Assembly (NCBI GenBank): GCA_964565125.1
Contig: CAZMCX010000024.1
Location: 1 to 10,124, forward strand
Source of the DNA: an uncultured archaeon
Lineage (GTDB): Archaea; Iainarchaeota; Iainarchaeia; Iainarchaeales; 0-14-0-20-30-16
Direction: 5' to 3'
DNA: 10,124 bases
The notes beneath the pieces are model-generated. The model had not been told where the DNA came from. It saw only the letters and a list, made by a program, of their open reading frames with translations, and did no database searches. This document shows positions 326-9,808 of the stretch, in pieces; position 1 is the first letter of the stretch, and every line of letters begins with the position of its first letter. Made by a program: the position numbers and the translations under genes.

Positions 326-1096
326 TTACTGGAATAAATCTGACAGGTAGTTTATTAATGCGTGGAATGGATTCAAAACACTATTTATTACTGGGTACGA
401 AAAGTAAAGGAATTTATTTTCTTCTTCGCTATCCGCAGTTATTGTAAGTTGTTTTCCAAGTTTGAAAAGATCGTCTCCCTTATAGTCCTCACAAACAAAT
501 TCAATTTCATAATCCCCTATATTGTTTGCTACAAACTGGGCGGAATACTCTTTTGTTTCCCTAGGACCCAAAGATATTTTTACTGATTTAACCCAAGATT
601 CTGCTAAATTTGATTTTAATTCACAATCTGCTTTTGCGTCACTTAAGTTTTCCACAATATATTTTATTTCTTTACTATCATGTAATTTCAAGTTTGAGCC
701 TACGAAAAATAACTGGCTTTTTACAAGGTTTTCTGATATTGTAATAGAAGTAGTTACTGTTTTTTCCCCGTGATTTGTGTTAAAAATAAATAAAACATCA
801 TATACCCCCAGTTTTGCATTTTCAAGGGCTGTTATGTAGACATCGGCGAAGGGGTCTCCGTAGCTTATTTTTCCTAATTCAAATGTAGAATCATTGTATT
901 TTACGGTAATTGACTCTATTGATTCGCCATTATATTGTTTTAAAAAAGAGATGTCCAGAACTTGGCCGGGCATTATACTTGCAAATGAATCTATCTTTCC
1001 CGAGTCAATATCTTTATCTAAAGGCTTTACAAAACCTATAGAAAACGATATACCAACTAACAAAATTAAAAAACAAAAGTACATCTTTCTTAACAT
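326..1096 (-). CDS. Secreted or membrane-anchored surface protein with two beta-rich (Ig-like/CARDB-like) segments; family uncertain
   Basis: 256-aa ORF. The ATG at 1096 is preceded by AAGGTGA (reverse complement of 1101-1107) with 4-nt spacing. The N-terminus MLRKMYFCFLILLVGISFSIGF looks like a signal peptide or TM anchor. Two segments end in G-x-Y-[DE]-[VI]-x-F (LGVYDVLFIF, IGDYEIEFVC), as in beta-sandwich surface domains. Confidence 0.7.
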   Translation of the reverse strand: MLRKMYFCFLILLVGISFSIGFVKPLDKDIDSGKIDSFASIMPGQVLDISFLKQYNGESIESITVKYNDSTFELGKISYGDPFADVYITALENAKLGVYDVLFIFNTNHGEKTVTTSITISENLVKSQLFFVGSNLKLHDSKEIKYIVENLSDAKADCELKSNLAESWVKSVKISLGPRETKEYSAQFVANNIGDYEIEFVCEDYKGDDLFKLGKQLTITADSEEENKFLYFSYPVINSVLNPFHALINYLSDLFQ

Positions 1097-1169
1097 TCTT
1101 TCACCTTTTATTAATATTTATAAAAAAAGCACAAAAATAGTTATATATCTTTGCTATCTTATGGTAAAC

Positions 1170-1754
1170 ATGGCAGATTATCGATTTGAAATGTGTAAAA
1201 AGAGCAATATGGCCAAGTTTGAGGTTGCTTTAGATAAAGGGCTTGTAGATAAAATGCTAATACCATTTCTAAAAAAAATAAACAAAAGGCCCAATATTTA
1301 TTCTTCTAGTTGTTGTGCAGGAAGAATTATGATTATCGGCTTAGATACCGAAGAAAGCAAAAAACCAAATTTATTTGTGCTTAAAGAACACCGAAAAGTA
1401 AAATTTTCTGAGATAAAAAACGCTTTAAAAACCGACAAGTTTCCAGAGCTGTGGCTAAAGGAAGAACCCTTTATTTTTCACTTTGGGACAAAGGACTTAG
1501 AAACTGCAAAAAAATTTTTAGAAATAAAAACAAAAGCAGGTATTAGAAGGGGCGGGATATTCCATATAAAAGACAACAAATACCTGATTGAACTTATTGG
1601 TTCACAAACTCTTGCGGTGCCAATAAAGATCGGAAAAAAGGTGTTATTTTCTGAGGAACAAATAAAAATAGTCTTAGAAAAAGCAAATAAAAAATTAGAA
1701 CGGAACTATAAACAGCTTAAAGAATTTTGTAAAGAATTATTAAAAATAGAATGA
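1170..1754 (+). CDS. taw3: tRNA wyosine-derivative methyltransferase, Taw3/TYW3 family
   Basis: The product contains YSSSCCAGRI, a variant of the SSCSGRI signature of the TYW3 family, and its length (~195 aa) fits archaeal Taw3. The frame is open from 894, but that extension overlaps the divergent gene and promoter. Candidate ATGs are at 1161 and 1170. TTATATAT (1141-1148) lies about 25 nt upstream of 1170, which is leaderless-type spacing. The start could be 1161. Confidence 0.75.
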   Translation: MADYRFEMCKKSNMAKFEVALDKGLVDKMLIPFLKKINKRPNIYSSSCCAGRIMIIGLDTEESKKPNLFVLKEHRKVKFSEIKNALKTDKFPELWLKEEPFIFHFGTKDLETAKKFLEIKTKAGIRRGGIFHIKDNKYLIELIGSQTLAVPIKIGKKVLFSEEQIKIVLEKANKKLERNYKQLKEFCKELLKIE

Positions 1755-1758
1755 TTGA

Positions 1759-1950
1759 TTAGTCTTTTTGTTTTCTTTTCTTTTGTCTTGCCATGTAGCC
1801 GGCCATCTTATTTACATTTGTTTTTGTTATTGGCAGGCCCAATTTGTTTATCGCTTTTTTATTAGTATCAAAATCCGTGCCTATCTCTTTCATAGATTCC
1901 ATTATTGTATTTGCTTTTGATTTTAATGGCTTTAACATTGATTTGCCCAT
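1759..1950 (-). CDS. rps17e: 30S ribosomal protein S17e
   Basis: The 63-aa product MGK...TDFDTNKKAINK...NKMAGYMARQKKRK matches the archaeal S17e pattern (MG+..., DF-x-x-NKK, AGY near the C-terminus) and its typical length. Confidence 0.8.
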   Translation of the reverse strand: MGKSMLKPLKSKANTIMESMKEIGTDFDTNKKAINKLGLPITKTNVNKMAGYMARQKKRKQKD

Positions 1951-2122: not shown

Positions 2123-2314
2123 TTATTTCTCCCTTGTTCCATCTGCTTTGTACTTAATTATTCTTAATGGTATTTTGTTTTCCTCAAACTCTTTTGATGC
2201 TACTTCGTAAGGGGTCTCTTTTTTATTCACGCTTACTTGTGGCGGAGCATTATCTGCTATTTGTAATGACCTTGTAGCCAATAGCCTCGTTTTTTCAAAT
2301 TTTGAATATGCCAA
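2123..2314 (-). CDS. rpoK: DNA-directed RNA polymerase subunit Rpo6 (RpoK / omega-like)
   Basis: The 63-aa product ...KFEKTRLLATRSLQIADNAPP... matches the conserved Rpo6 core (T+FE+AR..G.RALQI..GAP). There is no in-frame ATG. The only plausible start is TTG at 2314, with AGGTGAT 3 nt upstream, and an in-frame TAA lies just beyond. Confidence 0.75.
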   Translation of the reverse strand: MAYSKFEKTRLLATRSLQIADNAPPQVSVNKKETPYEVASKEFEENKIPLRIIKYKADGTREK

Positions 2315-2711: not shown

Positions 2712-3743
2712 TTACAACGAATAAAATAAGTTTAGTATTATTCCGCCAAGCCCATCAAGCATTTTTCCCGCATCATTCTTAGAATCCATTAAATGTATCT
2801 TTTTACCCTGACTTGAAAGAGCAACAAAATGTGGCTTAAGGATTATATAATTTTCATTAAAATAACTTGTAGAAACTACTAATTCTTCAACTGCAGCCAT
2901 TTGATTTTCTAAAACATTTTGGACTTCTTTGGGGCCATAAATAATATTTCTTTTGCCTTGGCTTATTTTGTATAAAGAGGTATTTATTTTTTCAATGTCT
3001 TTAGTTATTTTAAACTCATTAAGTGTTTTTGACAAAGAATTGCTTTTTATCAACTCTAATATTCCGCTTATCCCCACACCATTCAAGTTAACCATAATTG
3101 TTTTTATTTTTACATTTTTTTCTTTTAGATAAACTCCAAGTTTGTCTTTATCAAAGCCAGGGCCTGCCAAAATCAATAGTTCTGGTTTTGTGTTTGATAT
3201 GCTCTCAAAAATGTCTTTAAAATAGCTTTTATCTTCTTCCACAACATATCTTTTTCCCTTGCTTTTTGAATTTATTTTTGCAATTATTTTGTAATTACCG
3301 TAATTAATCTCAGCAACTATTGCTACTTCGTCGTCTAAAACTACTGAAAGTATTTTTGGATTTACAGCATATTTTTTTGCAGATTCTATTAATTCTAATT
3401 CATAGCCCAACAACACCTTATACAAAGTTACTGTGTCGCCGAAACCGATATCTAAGGTATGAAAAGAGCCGATATCAACATATTCTGCAGGGTGCCCTTC
3501 AATGATAACCCCAGTAAATTTAAGTCGGTCTGTTTGAGTATCAAATTCCTTTTTTTCTATTTTTATTTTTACATTTACTGTTTTCTTCTCGCTGTCTTTA
3601 GAACCTTCAACTCTAAAACGCCGTGTAGTTTTCCCATAAATCAATTCATTTTCGTGCGTTATATTATTTAGAACCCAAAGGTCATCTAAATTTTCAGGGG
3701 TGATTATCACATTCTGTTCTTTTTTATGTATAGTATACTTCAT
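2712..3743 (-). CDS. pelA: Pelota (aPelota/Dom34), ribosome rescue factor
   Basis: 343 aa. The N-terminus ...ITPENLDDLWVLNNI...GKTTRRFRV matches the conserved Pelota motif (pE..DDLW.L.N.I ... T.R), and the size and eRF1-like domain layout fit. Confidence 0.85.
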   Translation of the reverse strand: MKYTIHKKEQNVIITPENLDDLWVLNNITHENELIYGKTTRRFRVEGSKDSEKKTVNVKIKIEKKEFDTQTDRLKFTGVIIEGHPAEYVDIGSFHTLDIGFGDTVTLYKVLLGYELELIESAKKYAVNPKILSVVLDDEVAIVAEINYGNYKIIAKINSKSKGKRYVVEEDKSYFKDIFESISNTKPELLILAGPGFDKDKLGVYLKEKNVKIKTIMVNLNGVGISGILELIKSNSLSKTLNEFKITKDIEKINTSLYKISQGKRNIIYGPKEVQNVLENQMAAVEELVVSTSYFNENYIILKPHFVALSSQGKKIHLMDSKNDAGKMLDGLGGIILNLFYSL

Positions 3744-3776: not shown

Positions 3777-3795
3777 ATCCTTGGTTGAAATAAAT

Positions 3796-5544
3796 ATGCA
3801 AAAGAAAAGAATTGCTATAATTGACTATAAAAAATGTAAAAAAGAGGAGTGTGGATTTGCCTGTTACAACATCTGTCCAGTTATAAAAATGAACAAAGAA
3901 GCAATAGTCTATAATGAACTGGAAAAAAAGGTTCAAATTTCCGAAGAACTTTGTACTGGCTGCGGGATTTGCCCAAAGAAATGCCCTTTTGGAGCAATAA
4001 CAATAATTAATTTATCTTTAGATTTAAGTGAGCCCATACATCAATATGGAAAAAATCGTTTCAGATTATTTAGATTACCCACAATAAGGGCTGGTAATGC
4101 AGTTGGCTTAATTGGAAAAAACGGGATTGGAAAATCAACCATACTTAATATTTATTCAGGAGACATAATACCAAATCAAGGTAATTATGAAAAACCAGGT
4201 AATTACGAAGAAATAATAAATTATTTTAAAGGCAAAGAATTACAAGAAACGTTTATAAATTTAAAAAATGGGAAAACAAAAGTTTCGTACAAACCACAAA
4301 ACATAAAGGCCATAAAAGATAATTTCAAAGGCAAAGTAATAGACTTACTAAAAAAAGTTGATGAACGTAAAGAGCTTAACAAAATAATTGACCTATTAAA
4401 AATGGATAATATAATGAACAAAGAGATATCAACTCTTTCTGGTGGAGAACTCCAAAAAGTTGCAATAGCCGCAACAATTATAAAAAAGGCAAACCTTTAT
4501 TTTTATGATGAGCCATCGTCATTTTTAGACATAAAACAGAGATTTGTATTTGCAAAATTGATAGAAGATTATAAAGATACAAACTTAATTGTAGAGCACG
4601 ACTTGGCATTGGTTGACTACTTGTGTGATTATTTGCATATTTTATTTGGTAAAGCACACGCATATGGTGTTGTTTCTAATACAAAGACAACAAATACAGC
4701 AATAAATGAGTTTTTAGATGGTTTCATACCAGATGAAAACTTGAGATTCAGAGATTATGAAATAAACTTTTACTATAGGGGTGAGCAAGCAAAAAAAACT
4801 AATTTATTTTTTAATTATCCACAAATGTGTAAAACATTTAAAGACTTTAAACTTGATGTTGATGATGGATCTTTAAATGAAGGCGAAATTATTGGGATTG
4901 TCGGAGAAAACGGAATTGGAAAAACAACTTTTGTAAAACTACTTGCGGGCGTTGAAAAAGAGGATAATGAAATAAATGTTTTCAATAAACGAATGTCATA
5001 CAAACCACAAGATTTTGATGGTGAACATGTAAAAGTAAGGGAATTTTTAAAGGGCGTAAATCAAGAGATACTTATGTCTGAACTTTGGTTTAAGCTAAAA
5101 ATAAATGAGATTGAAGATTTATATTTGGATGAATTAAACATGGGGACTTTGCAAAAAATTATGATTGCAAAAACCCTTACAACTGACGCAGAAATTTATT
5201 TACTAGATGAGCCTTCTGCTTTTTTAGATGTTGAAGAAAGAATTAATATTGCAAAAATAATTCAATCTATTATTGCAAAAAGAAAAAAGGTCGCTTTTGT
5301 TGTTGATCACGATATACTTTTTGTTGATTTTGTTTCAGACAAAATAATTGTATTTGATGGAAAGCCCGGCATAGAGGGGTTTTGTACAAAACCAAAAGAT
5401 AAAAAAAGAGGTATGAACCAATTTTTAAAAATACTCGATGTAACTTACAGAAAAGATTTAAAGTCCGGAAGGCCGCGAGTAAATAAATTAAATTCTACGA
5501 AAGACAAAGAACAAAAAGCAGATGGTAATTACTATGTTTACTAG
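3796..5544 (+). CDS. ABCE1: ABCE1 (RNase L inhibitor homolog), ribosome-recycling ATPase
   Basis: The N-terminus has two ferredoxin-type cysteine clusters (CKKEECGFACYNICPV; CTGCGICPKKCPFGA). Two ABC cassettes follow: Walker A GLIGKNGIGKST and GIVGENGIGKTT, signature LSGGELQ, and Walker B YFYDEPS and YLLDEPS. The ATG at 3796 is preferred over the track's TTG at 3781. Confidence 0.9.
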   Translation: MQKKRIAIIDYKKCKKEECGFACYNICPVIKMNKEAIVYNELEKKVQISEELCTGCGICPKKCPFGAITIINLSLDLSEPIHQYGKNRFRLFRLPTIRAGNAVGLIGKNGIGKSTILNIYSGDIIPNQGNYEKPGNYEEIINYFKGKELQETFINLKNGKTKVSYKPQNIKAIKDNFKGKVIDLLKKVDERKELNKIIDLLKMDNIMNKEISTLSGGELQKVAIAATIIKKANLYFYDEPSSFLDIKQRFVFAKLIEDYKDTNLIVEHDLALVDYLCDYLHILFGKAHAYGVVSNTKTTNTAINEFLDGFIPDENLRFRDYEINFYYRGEQAKKTNLFFNYPQMCKTFKDFKLDVDDGSLNEGEIIGIVGENGIGKTTFVKLLAGVEKEDNEINVFNKRMSYKPQDFDGEHVKVREFLKGVNQEILMSELWFKLKINEIEDLYLDELNMGTLQKIMIAKTLTTDAEIYLLDEPSAFLDVEERINIAKIIQSIIAKRKKVAFVVDHDILFVDFVSDKIIVFDGKPGIEGFCTKPKDKKRGMNQFLKILDVTYRKDLKSGRPRVNKLNSTKDKEQKADGNYYVY

Positions 5545-5595: not shown

Positions 5596-6141
5596 ATGGC
5601 TACAGATATTATTAATCTAAATAGCATTCAAAAATATTTAGAAAATGTAGATTGTGCTGCTTATAAGCTTGTTTCTATTTGGTATAAAAACAAAGAAAAT
5701 ACTTCCGACGAATTTTTTACACAACACCTTGAATGTAAAATAACTGTTGTAAGGTCAATTTTAAATAAGTTACATTATTATGGAATAGTAAATTATGATA
5801 AAATAAAAAATGAAAATTCTGGCTGGTTTACATTTAAGTGGCATCTGGACTATAATAAACTTTCAAAACTTGTTTTTTTAAATAATCTGGATAAACTAGA
5901 AAAACTAAATGCAAAAGAAAAATATTATGGCGAATATCAAATGTTTGTTTGTAAAAACAGTTGCAACGACTTTCCTTTTGAAGTTGCTGCAGAATATAAT
6001 TTTAATTGTCCTATGTGTAATGAAACTTTAAAACATATTGATTATGTAGAAAAGCACAAGGAACTTCAAGCCCAGATTAAGATTATCGAAGAAGAAAATG
6101 TAATTTTGTCCTTATTTTTAAAGGAAAACAATAAAAAGTAA
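5596..6141 (+). CDS. tfe: Transcription factor E (TFE-alpha / TFIIE-alpha homolog)
   Basis: 181 aa. An N-terminal winged-helix-like segment (...ITVVRSILNKLHYYGIVNY...WFTFKW) is followed by a zinc-ribbon-like CKNSC...x18...CPMC, the layout of archaeal TFE. Confidence 0.7.
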   Translation: MATDIINLNSIQKYLENVDCAAYKLVSIWYKNKENTSDEFFTQHLECKITVVRSILNKLHYYGIVNYDKIKNENSGWFTFKWHLDYNKLSKLVFLNNLDKLEKLNAKEKYYGEYQMFVCKNSCNDFPFEVAAEYNFNCPMCNETLKHIDYVEKHKELQAQIKIIEEENVILSLFLKENNKK

Positions 6142-6164: not shown

Positions 6165-6240
6165 TAGCGGGGTAGGGCAGCCTGGAGTGCCCGCTGGGCT
6201 CATAACCCGGAGGTCGTTGGTTCAAATCCAACTCCCGCTA
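6165..6240 (+). tRNA. tRNA-iMet: tRNA-Met (anticodon CAT), initiator type; CCA not encoded
   Basis: Hand-folded cloverleaf: acceptor AGCGGGG/TCCCGCT, D arm GGGC-AGCCCTGGAGT-GCCC, anticodon arm CTGGG-CTCATAA-CCCGG, variable AGGTC, T arm GTTGG-TTCAAAT-CCAAC, discriminator A. The A1:U72 pair and the three G:C pairs closing the anticodon stem are hallmarks of archaeal initiator tRNA. An Ile2 (modified CAU) identity is less likely. Confidence 0.85.
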
Positions 6241-6280
6241 TCTTGTTCTAAGCTAACAAATTAACTATTGTTGTCAGAAG

Positions 6281-6315
6281 GTAATTATCGTAATTACGGT
6301 AATTACTGTAATTAC
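6281..6315. repeat. Iteron cluster 1: four head-to-tail GTAATTA[C/T] palindromic sites at an exact 9-bp period
   Basis: Sites start at 6281 (GTAATTAT), 6290, 6299 and 6308 (GTAATTAC). GTAATTAC equals its own reverse complement. Confidence 0.9.
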
Positions 6316-6465
6316 ACGCTAGATCTTTATAAAAAATTGCCGTTTATAATCAATAAAAAACACAAATTATTGGACAAACTGCTTTGGTTTGATTTATTTA
6401 GACATCGTTGGCGTTTTATGACAAAATATACTGGCTATTCTGTTTATTTGTTCACAAAATGAACT

Positions 6466-6473
6466 GTAATTAC
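6466..6473. promoter_or_regulatory. Isolated GTAATTAC site between the two clusters
   Basis: Exact octamer within ctGTAATTACcc. Confidence 0.6.
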
Positions 6474-6547
6474 CCTTGACAGTTAGTATGTTTAAGATCG
6501 TTTGTGGTCTGTTTTGTTATTTTTTGCTCTGTTTTTTATCTGTTTTG

Positions 6548-6646
6548 GTAATTACGGTAATTATTGTAGTTATAGGCGGTAATTACGGGTAATTACCGTA
6601 ATTATTATAAATACTAGTATGTAATTATTGTAATAAAGGTAATTAC
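6548..6646. repeat. Iteron cluster 2: nine GTAATTAC-type sites overlapping the putative promoter and 5' region of the 6659 gene
   Basis: Site starts: 6548, 6557, 6566 (degenerate GTAGTTAT), 6579, 6589, 6598, 6621, 6630 (degenerate GTAATAAA) and 6639. Spacing within sub-blocks is 9-10 bp. TTATAAATA (~6604-6612) and the perfect palindrome ATACTAGTAT (6611-6620) lie between sub-blocks. Confidence 0.9.
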
Positions 6647-6658
6647 CAAGTGATAGAA

Positions 6659-7156
6659 ATGGGGCTGTTTGATAAAATAAAAAGTTTATTCTTAAAGAAA
6701 GTAGGAAAAAAAAACAAAGAACCCGAAGTAAATGAAAAAAAAGAGCTAAAAAAACCTGAAAAGTTTGAAATCAAAGAAGAAAGGGTAACAGAACCAAAGA
6801 AAAGTATACATAACACCCCAGAAGAACTAGAAGAAGTAGTTGTAGATGATTTATGGAACTATATTGACCCTATGAAAAATACCCAAGCTTATCACATAAT
6901 AAGTGTTGTTGGCTTCGAAGAATGGGTAGATATGCAAACAATAAAAGATAGGGTAAAACAGATGTTTTTTATAGAATATAAAAACGAAAAAAGTCTTTAT
7001 CCTTATATAAAAACTTTAGTAGACATTGGGTTATTAGAAACTAACGCCGTAGGCGGAAAGAGGCAATGGAAAAAAAGAGAGATCCTTATAAACATTAAAA
7101 AGGAAAAAGCTATGTTAACAACAAAAATAAAAACAGGTTTAAAATTAACTAAATAA
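6659..7156 (+). CDS. Orphan protein: N-terminal amphipathic helix, K/E-rich linker, C-terminal winged-helix-like domain
   Basis: The ATG at 6659 is preceded by AAGTGAT + 4 nt, the same GTGAT-N4-ATG register as the starts at 8482 and 9808. The N-terminus MGLFDKIKSLFLKKV resembles membrane-targeting amphipathic helices. Residues ~15-60 are low-complexity and K/E/P-rich. The C-terminus ...MQTIKDRV...SLYPYIKTLVDIGLLETNAVGGKRQWKK reads as helix-turn-helix plus wing. Confidence 0.6.
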   Translation: MGLFDKIKSLFLKKVGKKNKEPEVNEKKELKKPEKFEIKEERVTEPKKSIHNTPEELEEVVVDDLWNYIDPMKNTQAYHIISVVGFEEWVDMQTIKDRVKQMFFIEYKNEKSLYPYIKTLVDIGLLETNAVGGKRQWKKREILINIKKEKAMLTTKIKTGLKLTK

Positions 7157-7170
7157 CTGGTTTTTTGCTT

Positions 7171-7758
7171 TTACCCTTTATATTTTACATAAAAGCCTAC
7201 TAATTTATCAAATTTCTTAACCAACCCGCTTCTTTTTACGGCGGCACCATACCAACTTCCGTTTTTTATAAAGTTGATTATGTTTTCATATTGTCTTAAA
7301 AATATTTTATCTATGTGTTTTCCAAGTGATAGTTCTTCTAAAAGATCAATAAGCAACCGGTAATTACCCTGACTATCAATAACATATGTGTTTCTTATTT
7401 GGTTTTCCACTGCTTTGGTTATTTTTACTTCGTCCATAGAAACATCCACTACGCTATAACTTGCTGTCCAATTACCTTTAGATCGCCAATTATGTGCTGG
7501 ATTTTTACCAGTTTTAAAAAAATTAATTAAATAAGAAAATCCATCTTTAGTTACTATAATTTCGTTTTTGCCTTCTTTTATGTAAGAAAATTTGCTTAAA
7601 ACTCCTGGTCTATGATAAACATATTTTTTTCCAGTTTGCTTACAAACTACTTGGGTGTAGCCATATATTGCTCTAAATAGCTTTTGGTAAAGATAGGATG
7701 AATGTTTTACTTCATCTAATACTTTTATTTTATATCTTACTAAAAAAGCATCTACCAT
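7171..7758 (-). CDS. Orphan protein (195 aa), no family recognised
   Basis: The ORF is open from GTG at 7767, but the ATG at 7758 has GGGTG upstream in the usual register. It is convergent with the 6659 gene across a 14-bp gap. The N-terminus (MVDAFLVRYKI...SYLYQKLFRAIYGYTQ...YVYHRPGVL) has a beta-alpha-beta-beta pattern that could be a ferredoxin-like fold. That reading is speculative. Confidence 0.5.
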   Translation of the reverse strand: MVDAFLVRYKIKVLDEVKHSSYLYQKLFRAIYGYTQVVCKQTGKKYVYHRPGVLSKFSYIKEGKNEIIVTKDGFSYLINFFKTGKNPAHNWRSKGNWTASYSVVDVSMDEVKITKAVENQIRNTYVIDSQGNYRLLIDLLEELSLGKHIDKIFLRQYENIINFIKNGSWYGAAVKRSGLVKKFDKLVGFYVKYKG

Positions 7759-7886
7759 TAGATACACCCTATAGTTCCACTATTACCATTATTAATATAT
7801 TTTTTTAGGTTATGTAGATTATAGAAATAATAAAGTTTATATTTCAATCTTTATTTTTTGAATAAATAGACAAAAATTAGAAGTTA

Positions 7887-7907
7887 AGGTAAAATTAACT
7901 TTTACCT
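7887..7907 (-). terminator. Stem-loop overlapping the stop codon of the PRC-barrel gene
   Basis: AGGTAAAA-ttaac-TTTTACCT is a perfect 8-bp stem, followed on the minus strand by T-rich sequence. Its function is not demonstrated. Confidence 0.3.
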
Positions 7908-8216
7908 ATAACTTATTAATGCACCAGCCTTTATGTTAGGCCTTTTTTTATTATCATCTGAACTAGAATCATCAATTTTTCTATTTTTTGAAGCAACTAT
8001 GATAATGTCTTTAACTGCTAAAACGTTCTTATAAGGTATACTTTTCTCAGTTATTATCTTCTTTGCTTGTTGTTTTGTTTTTACTTTTAAAGGTTCTGTA
8101 GTTATAGTTTCTAGTTTACCTGTCTCTAAATTTACAACTATATCGTACACTTTGCCTTTATAGTCTCCGATGTCTGTATAGATGTCTCTGCCGAATAGTT
8201 CGGATAGTCTTAACAT
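7902..8216 (-). CDS. PRC-barrel domain protein
   Basis: The 104-aa product has the N-terminus LSELFGRDIYTDIGDYKGKVYDIVVNLETGKLETI, matching the PRC-barrel pattern (l.G..V....G..lG.v.D+.+d..tg.+). A strong SD, GGAGGG, lies 6 nt upstream of the ATG at 8216. The C-terminal tail is disordered and S/D/K-rich. Confidence 0.75.
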   Translation of the reverse strand: MLRLSELFGRDIYTDIGDYKGKVYDIVVNLETGKLETITTEPLKVKTKQQAKKIITEKSIPYKNVLAVKDIIIVASKNRKIDDSSSDDNKKRPNIKAGALISYR

Positions 8217-8481
8217 TTTAATCCCTCCAATATAATTAATTTGTTAAATCATTAAAGGAATATTTCCTTTACATATTATAGAAAATAATACTCATATATA
8301 TAGTTTTCGATTAGAAAGCCCCTAAACTCAAAAATATTCTTTTAATTTTTAAAGTGAATACTGGAACCATGGAGGGCCCTCTTGCACAGCTTTTTCAAGA
8401 CATAAGGAGAAACATTTAAATATAACCTGAACTTTAATTTAATTGTTATAATTAAAATATAGGAACAAGAGGGTGATGTTA

Positions 8482-8757
8482 ATGTATAAGTACACAATAG
8501 CTAAACAATTGGCTTCAAAGAGAGTAATAACAGGAAGAGGAGAAGAAGTAGGTAAATTGATAGATGTTTTGGTCAATGAACTAACTGGGGATGTAGAATA
8601 CCTATTAGTTGAAATAGACAGCCAGTCGAAATTGGTAAAAAGCCTTAACTTAAACACAGGAGACAGAATCATAAAAATACCATATGCAGCAGTTAGTGCA
8701 GTAAGTGATGTATTTATAGTAGATGAAAAGCAAATTACTGCTGAAGCTGAGGAATAG
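8482..8757 (+). CDS. PRC-barrel domain protein (second paralog)
   Basis: ...LASKRVITGRGEEVGKLIDVLVNELTGDVEYLLVEID... is a PRC-barrel signature. GGGTGAT + 4 nt precedes the ATG at 8482. The in-frame GTG at 8473 and ATG at 8476 fall inside the SD and are less likely starts. Confidence 0.75.
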   Translation: MYKYTIAKQLASKRVITGRGEEVGKLIDVLVNELTGDVEYLLVEIDSQSKLVKSLNLNTGDRIIKIPYAAVSAVSDVFIVDEKQITAEAEE

Positions 8758-9808
8758 AAAATATAATTTTTTTATTCTTCATATCTATTTTTATAATATT
8801 TTGTAAAAGAGGGTAATTTTTACCCTTAGTTTTTAATATTTTTAGTATTTGATCAGGTTTATTTCCTTTTTCTAATGCTTGTAGTATAGTTAGTCTAAGC
8901 TCTTCTAAAAAATCATAGTTTGCTTCAATCCATTTTGCCTTTTCACTACCTTCTTTTATATTTTGTTTAAAATCCTCTAACTTTAAGTCCATTTTTTTAA
9001 TAGTTATTTCAAGTTCCAAAGATTTTTTGTTGACCCCCTTTTTTTCTAAAACAATACTATCTAAGGAGTTAATGTATTTGTCTATAATATCATTAAAACT
9101 CGTTTTTATAACTTCTAAATTATCTACTTTTACATTAAAATATTCTAATTTTTTATTTTTTAGAAGAATACAATTATCCATAATTATTGGACTATTATAG
9201 ATTTTTTTTATTTTTTTTGTAATATTGTTTAAATCCGGGGCTTCTTTTGCCAAATGTTCAACAAGAGAAGGCGGAACATTAAGCTTTGAAATTATTTCAG
9301 AAATACTACAAAAGTTAAAGTTGGTTATTTTTGCAGGATTTTCTTTATTATTTGATGGAAAAACGTATTCTTTATTTGTGCCTATTTCTCTGTCCGCCCA
9401 TTTTTCTCTTATTTGGCTCGCAATTATTTTATAATTTTTATTTGTTAAAATTATATTATTATGTGAAAATAATTCAAATATTAAAAAGTTATTTCTTGTT
9501 TCAAAAACAATTACTTTTTCAAAATTCTTTTGTTCTATTTTTAAAATTTTTTCATTCCCCAATTGTTTTTCAAGATTTTTACAAAAACCAGTTTTTTCAC
9601 TGGTTTTGTAATTGTATTTTGTTAAAAATAAGAATCCGTTATAAACAATTAAATCGCGATTTGTATCTTTAGATTTTATTTTTATTTTTAAAGCATTTTC
9701 ATTTTTTTCTAAAGGTTGTATTTTTTGAATATACGCATTTGTTAATGTGTTATCAAGATTTCTTTCAAAGTATTTTACATTTAAATTGTTAAGTAGAATT
9801 TTTTCCAT
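8735..9808 (-). CDS. NFACT-N (FbpA/Rqc2/RqcH-like) protein, short form lacking the C-terminal NFACT-R region
   Basis: 357 aa. The pattern ...GFCKNLEKQLGNEKILKIEQKNFEKVIVFETRNNFLIFELFSHNNIILTNKNYKIIAS...REIGTNKEYVFP matches the NFACT-N core (F...LRK.L.g..I..I.Q...DRiv.f.f.....LI.ELf..gNiIL.d....I......R.i..g..Y..P). An HhH-like segment (ISKLNVPPSLVEHLAKEA) and a coiled-coil-like K/E-rich segment follow. GGGTGAT + 4 nt precedes the ATG at 9808. Confidence 0.7.
   Translation of the reverse strand: MEKILLNNLNVKYFERNLDNTLTNAYIQKIQPLEKNENALKIKIKSKDTNRDLIVYNGFLFLTKYNYKTSEKTGFCKNLEKQLGNEKILKIEQKNFEKVIVFETRNNFLIFELFSHNNIILTNKNYKIIASQIREKWADREIGTNKEYVFPSNNKENPAKITNFNFCSISEIISKLNVPPSLVEHLAKEAPDLNNITKKIKKIYNSPIIMDNCILLKNKKLEYFNVKVDNLEVIKTSFNDIIDKYINSLDSIVLEKKGVNKKSLELEITIKKMDLKLEDFKQNIKEGSEKAKWIEANYDFLEELRLTILQALEKGNKPDQILKILKTKGKNYPLLQNIIKIDMKNKKIIFSIPQLQQ

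Follow-up and report, generated by a model that had tools for sequence, protein, structure and literature searches.

What would an archaeon want with fourteen copies of one eight-letter word, crowded into the interval between an initiator tRNA gene and a protein-coding gene that carries no annotation? The stretch of DNA that raises this question, hereafter the window, comprises 10,124 nucleotides of contig CAZMCX010000024.1 from an uncultured archaeon. It is AT-rich (29.6% GC) and archaeal, its nearest named relatives are metagenome-assembled genomes (MAGs) of Candidatus Iainarchaeum and Diapherotrites (DPANN archaea), and it comes from the chromosome of a DPANN archaeon resembling Iainarchaeum. 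The octamers, whose exact form is GTAATTAC, occupy the intergenic region between the gene for the initiator tRNA (tRNA-iMet) and a gene that we call X. The original prediction, made from the letters alone, took them for an operator or iteron array bound by the product of the adjacent gene. Comparative evidence, drawn from searches blind to either the motif or the gene, from the bracketing of a TATA box by the sites and from a winged-helix model of the protein, now argues for autoregulation: the octamers are likely to be the operators through which the winged-helix protein X controls its own promoter.

The octamers, their promoter and their gene

Fourteen octamers lie within 6281-6646, every one where the original prediction had placed it, including the regular 9-9-9 spacing of the upstream block (cluster 1) and the lone copy at 6466 in the core that separates the blocks. 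Eight are exact copies of GTAATTAC, four are the one-mismatch form GTAATTAT and two depart from the consensus at two positions (Table 1); the sites had been described as self-complementary, which is true of the eight exact copies, only the two worst having been marked as degenerate. Successive sites of the second block (cluster 2) are spaced by 9, 9, 13, 10, 9, 23, 9 and 9 bp; some copies extend to GGTAATTACC, as had been noticed (6588-6597 and 6638-6647), and the last octamer ends, again as foreseen, 12 nt short of the ATG at 6659. Such crowding is not random: the 450 nt upstream of X hold eight exact octamers against 0.019 expected from composition, and if one mismatch is allowed, 22 sites are counted over the whole window, where shuffled sequences give 7.5 +/- 2.8 and none of 200 reaches 22.

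The sites close in upon a promoter. The TATA candidate put forward earlier, TTATAAATA, is present and bracketed by octamers, one base away from the approximate 6604-6612 given for it, whereas the palindrome ATACTAGTAT, although found at 6611-6620 as described, is not conserved in the orthologous loci. On the upstream side, 6589 and 6598 lead into the TATA box, the latter overlapping the position of the transcription factor B recognition element (BRE) and the first base of the box itself, while sites 6621, 6630 and 6639 span the stretch from the box to the expected start of transcription, which the usual archaeal distance from TATA box to start would put near 6634-6640. It is cluster 2 that contains the promoter, rather than the 230-bp core, and the earlier picture of two blocks flanking a core and promoter therefore misdescribes the layout.

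Orthologous loci, read over 10-16 kb each, show what has been kept. Those with X at 87%, 76%, 65% and 63% identity retain the gene order, both clusters with the lone site between them, and the TATA box. Aligned across five lineages (X at 63-87% identity), the 112 site columns have a mean pairwise identity of 89.6% and the 254 non-site columns within 6281-6646 one of 48.3% (Mann-Whitney p ~2e-26); sites are conserved while spacers drift, as the original prediction had anticipated for a true array. None of the five lineages departs from the others at sites 6466, 6589, 6598, 6621 and 6639, and 6630 is almost as constant; since the non-consensus spellings GTAATTAT and GTAATAAC are kept among them, these sites are tuned rather than decayed. 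Orthologous loci also back the two-mismatch sites, 6566 (GTAGTTAT in the window) being spelled GTAGTTAC, GTACTTAC or GTAATTAC there, and 6630 (GTAATAAA) being spelled GTAATAAC. The octamers are real, non-random and under purifying selection.

Their number is a more local affair. Cluster 1 is kept with four to five sites in L001, L003, L005 and L131, is missing in GC-richer relatives and was found only in the low-GC clade to which the window belongs. Most relatives have two to four sites, and the split array of 14-16 is an expansion of that ordinary operator specific to the window's clade, not the novel large architecture for which it was first taken.

The association of motif and gene emerges from either end. 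When 80 metagenome loci were retrieved by peptide patterns of X alone, 63 of them with at least 300 nt upstream, one or more exact copies of GTAATTAC stood within the 300 nt upstream of X in 60 of the 63, and two or more in 39; an unsupervised count of 8-mers placed at the top GTAATTAC, which occurs in the 150 nt preceding X in 57 of the 63 loci but in a control segment in only 3 of 63. Conversely, a three-site pattern scanned without regard to genes through one genome for each of 185,579 species gave at least 119 matches; among the matches listed, most were unrelated bacterial repeats lacking the exact octamer, and all ten exact-site arrays (10/10) lay directly upstream of an X homologue (37-54% identity), most with tRNA-Met(CAT) upstream and a homologue of the window's next gene, Y, downstream. 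Since the genomes of these ten loci range from 23 to 47% GC, base composition does not account for the motif. In 17 loci taken together, the 7.6 kb upstream of X contain 74 exact sites, and 142 kb elsewhere contain 26.

Promoter geometry is equally recurrent. In the motif-blind loci, exact sites are most frequent at two distances from the ATG, -100 to -70 and -30 to -20, the ATG being assigned mechanically as the first in-frame one, which puts these positions out by a few to tens of nucleotides in some of the 63 loci. The family consensus, ...CATTACcGTAAg-TATTTTAA-GTAATTAC-tatcattac...ATG, comprises one or two sites (CATTAC-c-GTAAg before TATTTTAA), an A/T box, one abutting site downstream and a final 13-19 nt before the ATG. 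Across the family, octamers bracket an A/T box of this kind (TATTTTAA, GTTTTTAA or ATTATAA), and the octamer directly downstream of it is the most constant feature of these promoters, a layout that reads as a near-leaderless archaeal promoter with an operator set between TATA box and start. Successive sites in the family are 9 bp apart in 34 cases and 10 bp apart in 12, the remainder falling at 19, 22-23 (the class that spans the TATA box) and 32 bp, all of which are roughly whole turns of the helix; the exact 9-bp register and spiral filament proposed at first were an over-interpretation. Furthermore, in one sub-lineage a gene for tRNA-dihydrouridine synthase (Dus) stands directly upstream of X, and there the main array precedes Dus and occupies the Dus-X operon promoter; the array tracks the promoter rather than the X coding sequence.

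Octamers also occur away from this promoter. Four more exact copies in the window, at 3291, 4199, 5525 and 7360, are all coding and translated as Gly-Asn-Tyr, within stretches at 3291-3307, 4181-4206, 5525-5532 and 7360-7367. The pair in ABCE1 (4181/4199), 18 bp apart, encodes GNYEKPGNY and is exact at both positions in L005, while the copy at 5525, 19 nt before the ABCE1 stop and 71 nt upstream of the start of TFE, is kept in L001, L003, L005 and L007. The 26 exact sites outside X-upstream regions in the 17 loci compare with 4.8 expected and come mostly from the low-GC clade; such coding octamers may be functional sites or a coincidence at the level of codons. In relatives, a few pairs or triplets of exact octamers stand away from the X promoter, between two tRNA-Lys genes (L120, 3361-3387) and, in L193 (901-928) and L196 (801-827 and 4086-4132), at the convergent X/Y junction, and may be further targets of the same factor. 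In a Micrarchaeota contig (L015, 5019-5046), GTAATTA(T/A) occurs three times, 10 bp apart, immediately ahead of a small gene whose product begins like a ribbon-helix-helix protein (…YTTVSIPRPLYDKVKERIK…); this is an unrelated module resembling an autoregulator with a similar AT-rich repeat.

Protein X and its proposed circuit

Gene X had been called an orphan, which it is not. Its protein retrieves 111 clusters at the 90% clustering level, with E-values down to 1e-99, all of them unannotated and those with a name coming from Diapherotrites, Micrarchaeota or unclassified archaeal MAGs; the family extends to 179 metagenome loci. Its outer boundary is abrupt. An exhaustive HMMER profile search of 1.84 billion representatives returned only 40 members of the family and no distant tail, and X has no match in Pfam or NCBIfam and no sequence-profile match in the PDB. 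The family is small, sharply bounded and specific to Diapherotrites and related DPANN archaea.

The layout of the protein comprises an N-terminal amphipathic helix, a disordered linker rich in K and E, a winged helix (residues ~60-147) and a basic C-terminal helix. An AlphaFold2 model built from a 51-sequence alignment has a predicted local distance difference test (pLDDT) score above 90 over residues ~60-147, and its helix-helix-helix-hairpin topology is that of a winged helix, followed by an extra strand and the basic C-terminal helix. Nearly all of the best 50 matches in a Foldseek search of the PDB are winged-helix DNA binders or winged-helix domains (E ~1e-3 to 1e-2, probability ~1.0), headed by Fur-family DNA-binding domains and including BlaI/MecI, haloarchaeal RosR, viral F93, Sso10a, TubR (rank 23) and PadR. 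No profile membership in Fur, BlaI/MecI, PadR, MarR, Lrs14/Sso10a or TubR was found with Pfam, NCBIfam, PDB profiles or HMMER, and the likeness of the model to known regulator families is one of fold only. The helix-3 region (SLYPYIKTL) is invariant in a family whose mean column identity is 34%, which fits an invariant DNA motif. The N-terminus (residues 1-14, encoded at 6659-6700; MGLFDKIKSLFLKK) is a conserved amphipathic helix whose mean best hydrophobic moment over 106 homologues is 0.65 against 0.51 for shuffled N-termini (p ~1e-17), and which we take to resemble membrane-targeting or partner-binding helices.

The best reading of these observations is cooperative autoregulation by X, probably repressive to judge from the geometry of the promoter. 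X would bind GTAATTAC, probably as dimers that touch their neighbours on sites one helical turn (9-10 bp) apart. Bound at 6589 and 6598, it would occlude the BRE and the edge of the TATA box; bound at 6621-6646, it would occlude the path from TATA box to transcription start. High levels of X would consequently block both the binding of TATA-binding protein and transcription factor B (TBP/TFB) and the recruitment of RNA polymerase, giving negative autoregulation, while partial occupancy of the upstream sites could aid recruitment instead, in the manner of the Ss-LrpB switch. Cluster 1, ~260 bp upstream, is most likely an auxiliary operator that raises the local concentration of X or loops to cluster 2 and so sharpens the response; since a TATA-like TTTATAAAAAA follows it at 6327-6337, albeit one that is not conserved, it may also control a second, upstream promoter. 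Alternatively, one X dimer may cover a pair of neighbouring octamers: GTAATTAC-N-GTAATTAC, a 17-mer, also reads as a palindrome around its own midpoint, so overlapping modes of binding are possible, as with Fur boxes.

Several points weigh against this account. It is linkage that points to X as the binder of the octamers, and the motif is invariant across the family, hence there is no co-variation of protein and site to draw upon. Self-complementary units of 8 bp are shorter than the typical operators of winged-helix dimers and are more typical of ribbon-helix-helix proteins (MetJ met-boxes, ParR, omega). A regulator that acts on itself only would make little sense, and other targets of X are not visible in the flanks beyond a few extra pairs (L120, L193/L196). 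Finally, the direction of regulation, be it repression or activation, is read from geometry, and the most likely role of cluster 1 is itself deduced.

The unit length leads directly to one alternative, in which the octamers are operators of a different regulator encoded elsewhere, for example a ribbon-helix-helix protein, and X is merely its most conserved target. Tandem 8-bp palindromes are typical of ribbon-helix-helix binding, a few exact site pairs do lie away from X, and the tie between X and the DNA is indirect. We nevertheless consider this explanation improbable, if worth keeping in mind: the X promoter is by far the dominant location of exact sites in the 17 loci, motif and helix-3 region are invariant over the same clade, and the explanation is less economical because X itself has a DNA-binding fold, a winged helix, and no other conserved DNA-binding gene travels with the array. 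Far less can be said for the idea that the repeats are coding sequence or that the core encodes a structured non-coding RNA, to which we give almost no credence. An open reading frame (ORF) of 64 amino acids with GNY repeats does exist at 6268-6462, and GGT-AAT-TAC does spell Gly-Asn-Tyr, as octamers in real genes are read (4181/4199 in ABCE1); however, L001, L003 and L005 have no counterpart ORF of at least 30 amino acids, the spacers carry indels and the ORF is regarded as spurious. As for RNA, Rfam at a permissive threshold detected the tRNA only, with no non-coding RNA match in the array region, and what is conserved is the octamers and one 23-nt element, not a continuous block of RNA length.

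Larger roles for the array have to be set against the same promoter geometry. The array might be a chromosomal centromere-like or anchoring site whose 14-16 sites are coated by X, the amphipathic helix of X then tethering the locus to the membrane or to a cytomotive partner along the lines of ParR/parC, TubR/tubC or Noc, with autoregulation as a side effect; we hold this to be unlikely. The repeat blocks are split over ~360 bp and overlap the binder's promoter, as in parC (PMC2241845) and the split tubC (PMC6009700), yet the overlap is equally true of ordinary operators and does not discriminate. The large array is apparently unique within the flanks covered, TubR is among the structural neighbours of X, and X does begin with a conserved amphipathic helix and, after it, a disordered linker rich in K and E; against this, the TubR likeness is that of a generic winged-helix fold (E ~1e-2), and a membrane role for the helix is suggested by resemblance only. 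Most members of the family have two to four sites placed exactly as promoter operators, and no gene for a ParA, ParM, TubZ or SegA-type NTPase was seen within 6-8 kb of X in L001, L003, L005, L007, L008 or L009, X being followed instead by the convergent gene Y, which has no recognised fold. A plasmid centromere in particular, of the kind of parC/ParR, tubC/TubR or the AspA system of pNOB8, finds no support in a context that is chromosomal and syntenic with housekeeping genes, without a mobile replicon. There is a slim chance that X is a locus-specific DNA-tethering protein: its helix and linker would attach it, when bound to DNA, to the membrane or to a partner in division or segregation, and the expanded, split array beside tRNA-iMet would supply the avidity, no motor gene being adjacent. 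That the octamers are the initiator-binding repeats of a chromosomal or iteron-type replication origin, with the core as unwinding element, is very improbable. Repeat blocks do flank a spacer of ~230 bp with a strand-asymmetric T-rich tract, next to a winged-helix gene. However, the core has 28.9% GC, close to the window as a whole, and is therefore no AT-rich unwinding element; apart from one 23-nt element it is not conserved, the skew of the window simply follows gene orientation, and relatives have two to four sites, every one of them at the TATA box. Within 6-8 kb, the loci with listed genes contain no orc1/cdc6 or Rep gene, and in Ca. Forterrea, the only complete Diapherotrite genome analysed for skew, the predicted origin is next to cdc6 (PMC5905446). 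An iteron-type plasmid origin is further opposed by X itself, a single winged-helix protein without a Pfam or NCBIfam Rep domain. The analogies with plasmid centromeres and iteron origins in the original prediction thus fall away: no cdc6/orc1, Rep or partition NTPase gene is nearby, the core is not AT-rich and the synteny is chromosomal.

Autoregulation through the octamers has more to offer than a tidy account of one promoter. The small winged-helix protein is lineage-specific and its proposed site, an 8-bp palindrome, is sharply defined; the two form a clean pair, computationally well supported and testable without culturing the organism, and the promoter geometry, with both the BRE/TATA edge and the path from TATA box to start covered, directly predicts repression. 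The increase in operator number from 2-4 to 14-16, while motif and recognition surface stay fixed, provides a natural series for the study of cooperativity. Should the amphipathic N-terminus truly anchor X to a membrane or a partner, the finding would become considerably more interesting.

The surrounding locus

The genes around the array (Table 1) belong to a settled neighbourhood. The order TFE-tRNA-X-Y-PRC is kept family-wide with housekeeping genes on its flanks, and synteny extends to TYW3, Rpb6, Pelota, ABCE1, TFE, NFACT and eRF1 on contigs of up to 238 kb and more. An integrated mobile element at the tRNA was considered and rejected because of this conserved gene order and the flanking housekeeping genes. 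The window's organism or a near-identical strain has also been sampled independently, since a JGI metagenome contig of 7.6 kb (L129, Ga0210051_1011895) has an X that is 100% identical and the same array.

Table 1. Positions of genes, octamers and other elements in the window (a dot marks features without strand)
Feature	Position	Strand	Remarks
TYW3	894-1754	+	
S17e-like	1759-1950	-	
Rpb6	2123-2314	-	
Pelota	2712-3743	-	
ABCE1	3781-5544	+	
TFE-alpha	5596-6141	+	
tRNA-Met(CAT), initiator	6165-6242	+	ARAGORN; Rfam tRNA, 57 bits
Cluster 1: four octamers (6281 GTAATTAT; 6290, 6299, 6308 GTAATTAC)	6281-6315	.	Putative distal operator block
Conserved 23-nt element AAAAAACACAAATTATTGGACAA in core	6355-6377	+	Near-invariant in close relatives
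Lone exact octamer in core (6466 GTAATTAC)	6466-6473	.	Invariant in all five aligned lineages
T-rich tract, 67% T on top strand	6500-6547	+	Adjoins cluster 2 on its upstream side; contains three loose TTTTTGCTCTGTTTT-like repeats
Cluster 2, upstream part (6548, 6579, 6589 GTAATTAC; 6557, 6598 GTAATTAT; 6566 GTAGTTAT, degenerate)	6548-6605	.	
TATA box TTATAAATA of X promoter	6605-6613	+	Within invariant block GTAATTATTATAAATACT in five lineages
Cluster 2, downstream part (6621 GTAATTAT; 6630 GTAATAAA; 6639 GTAATTAC)	6621-6646	.	
Shine-Dalgarno-like GTGAT, 5 nt before ATG	6650-6654	+	Conserved in window clade; putative role
Gene X, 165 aa	6659-7156	+	Proposed octamer binder
Gene Y, 195 aa	7171-7758	-	Convergent with X
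PRC-barrel gene	7902-8216	-	
PRC-barrel gene	8473-8757	+	
NFACT_N protein	8735-9808	-	

The tRNA upstream of the array is an initiator, as had been supposed: its letters give an A1:U72 pair, and the anticodon stem contains three G:C pairs. A tRNA-Met(CAT) adjoins X in most related loci, and in some GC-richer relatives it contains an intron (L009, ~7415-7545; L051, upstream of X), the exons being recognisable by eye and ARAGORN in bacterial mode making no call.

Of the core (6316-6547), which at 28.9% GC compares with 17-26% for most other intergenic regions, only the 23-nt element and the lone octamer are conserved. The element has the form AAAAAACAC-N5-6-(C/T)TTGGACAA, is neither palindromic nor a GTAATTAC site, and recurs between TFE and X in almost all loci without ever changing strand relative to X. 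Its place within this TFE-tRNA-X interval varies: it follows the tRNA in the window's clade, comes straight after the TFE stop and ahead of the tRNA in GC-richer clades, and in L007 comes immediately before the ATG of Dus. Instances in relatives are at L007 ~2674, L008 ~7293, L009 ~7225, L033 ~2839, L076 ~5584 and L051 ~2989. The tract at 6500-6547 keeps its T-richness in relatives and not its sequence. That the core might be a decayed Dus gene was rejected, tblastn of Dus against the intergenic regions giving noise only (E > 0.6).

Downstream, gene Y is syntenic and convergent with X across the family and has many invariant aromatic and basic residues. Its AlphaFold2 model (pLDDT 93) has a ferredoxin-like N-terminal half and a helical C-terminal half, and since it has no match in Pfam, NCBIfam, a PDB sequence-profile search or a Foldseek search of the PDB, it may represent a new fold or family. 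Its own promoter (7768-7901) contains no octamer with up to one mismatch, and we regard Y as context rather than as an established part of the mechanism.

At the other end of the window, a 70-bp unit is repeated in tandem at 1942-2104 (2.3 copies, 98% identity), each copy carrying the first codons (ATGGGCAAA, minus strand) and upstream region of the S17e-like gene; in relatives the gap between S17e and Rpb6 at this position is only ~24 nt.

Comparison with known systems

The kind of circuit proposed here, an autoregulatory operator array, is familiar, the protein and motif are a new pair and the size of the array is unusual. By sequence X falls in no described regulator family, and no description of the motif in archaea was found, a literature search for GTAATTAC having returned incidental oligonucleotides only; the pair is therefore new, of a known kind. 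To our knowledge, no transcription factor of any DPANN archaeon has been characterised. MetJ binds tandem head-to-tail 8-bp palindromes cooperatively, but it is a ribbon-helix-helix protein and its met-boxes abut at an 8-bp period as opposed to 9 bp here. Fur boxes are nested palindromes that allow overlapping dimers, much as in GTAATTAC-N-GTAATTAC the centre of each octamer and the junction between the two are all axes of a palindrome; X nonetheless lacks the dimerisation and metal-binding domain of Fur and has no sequence homology to Fur or MetJ. ParR, the binder of parC, is likewise a ribbon-helix-helix protein, whereas X is predicted to be a winged helix, and the three boxes of Ss-LrpB, each of 13-15 bp, contrast with the 14 sites in two blocks of the window.

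The partition systems offer likenesses of architecture. In the type II centromere parC of plasmid R1, two sets of five 11-bp iterons surround the promoter and double as operators, ParR binding them cooperatively with about one dimer per repeat (PMC2241845), and the window likewise has two blocks of short repeats at the promoter of the presumed binder. The iterons of parC are, however, non-palindromic and enclose a promoter core of 39 bp, whereas in the window it is cluster 2 that contains the promoter, the 230-bp core being a different thing; there is, moreover, no ParM-like gene, and the context is a syntenic chromosome rather than a plasmid. In the type III partition system, TubR, like X, has a winged helix (PDB 3m8e), and the iteron segments of tubC are split over ~350 bp and cover part of a promoter, TubR spreading or oligomerising on the DNA (PMC6009700). 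The fold likeness to TubR is generic, the iterons differ in sequence and length, no TubZ is present, and most loci of the X family have just two to four promoter sites.

With the archaeal regulators LrpA of P. furiosus and Lrs14 and Ss-LrpB of S. solfataricus the arrangement has much of its logic in common. X has no detectable sequence relation to Lrp/AsnC or Lrs14 and no ligand-binding domain, and its unit is an 8-bp palindrome with a period of 9-10 bp in place of a 13-15-bp box. Yet these regulators too have several palindromic sites before their own genes, aligned with the helical repeat (PMC2995911). LrpA and Lrs14 autoregulate through sites at or after the TATA box, a position from which the recruitment of TBP/TFB or of RNA polymerase can be blocked, and Ss-LrpB binds several sites cooperatively and wraps the DNA (PMC2995911), a behaviour that X, with its sites one helical turn apart, may share.

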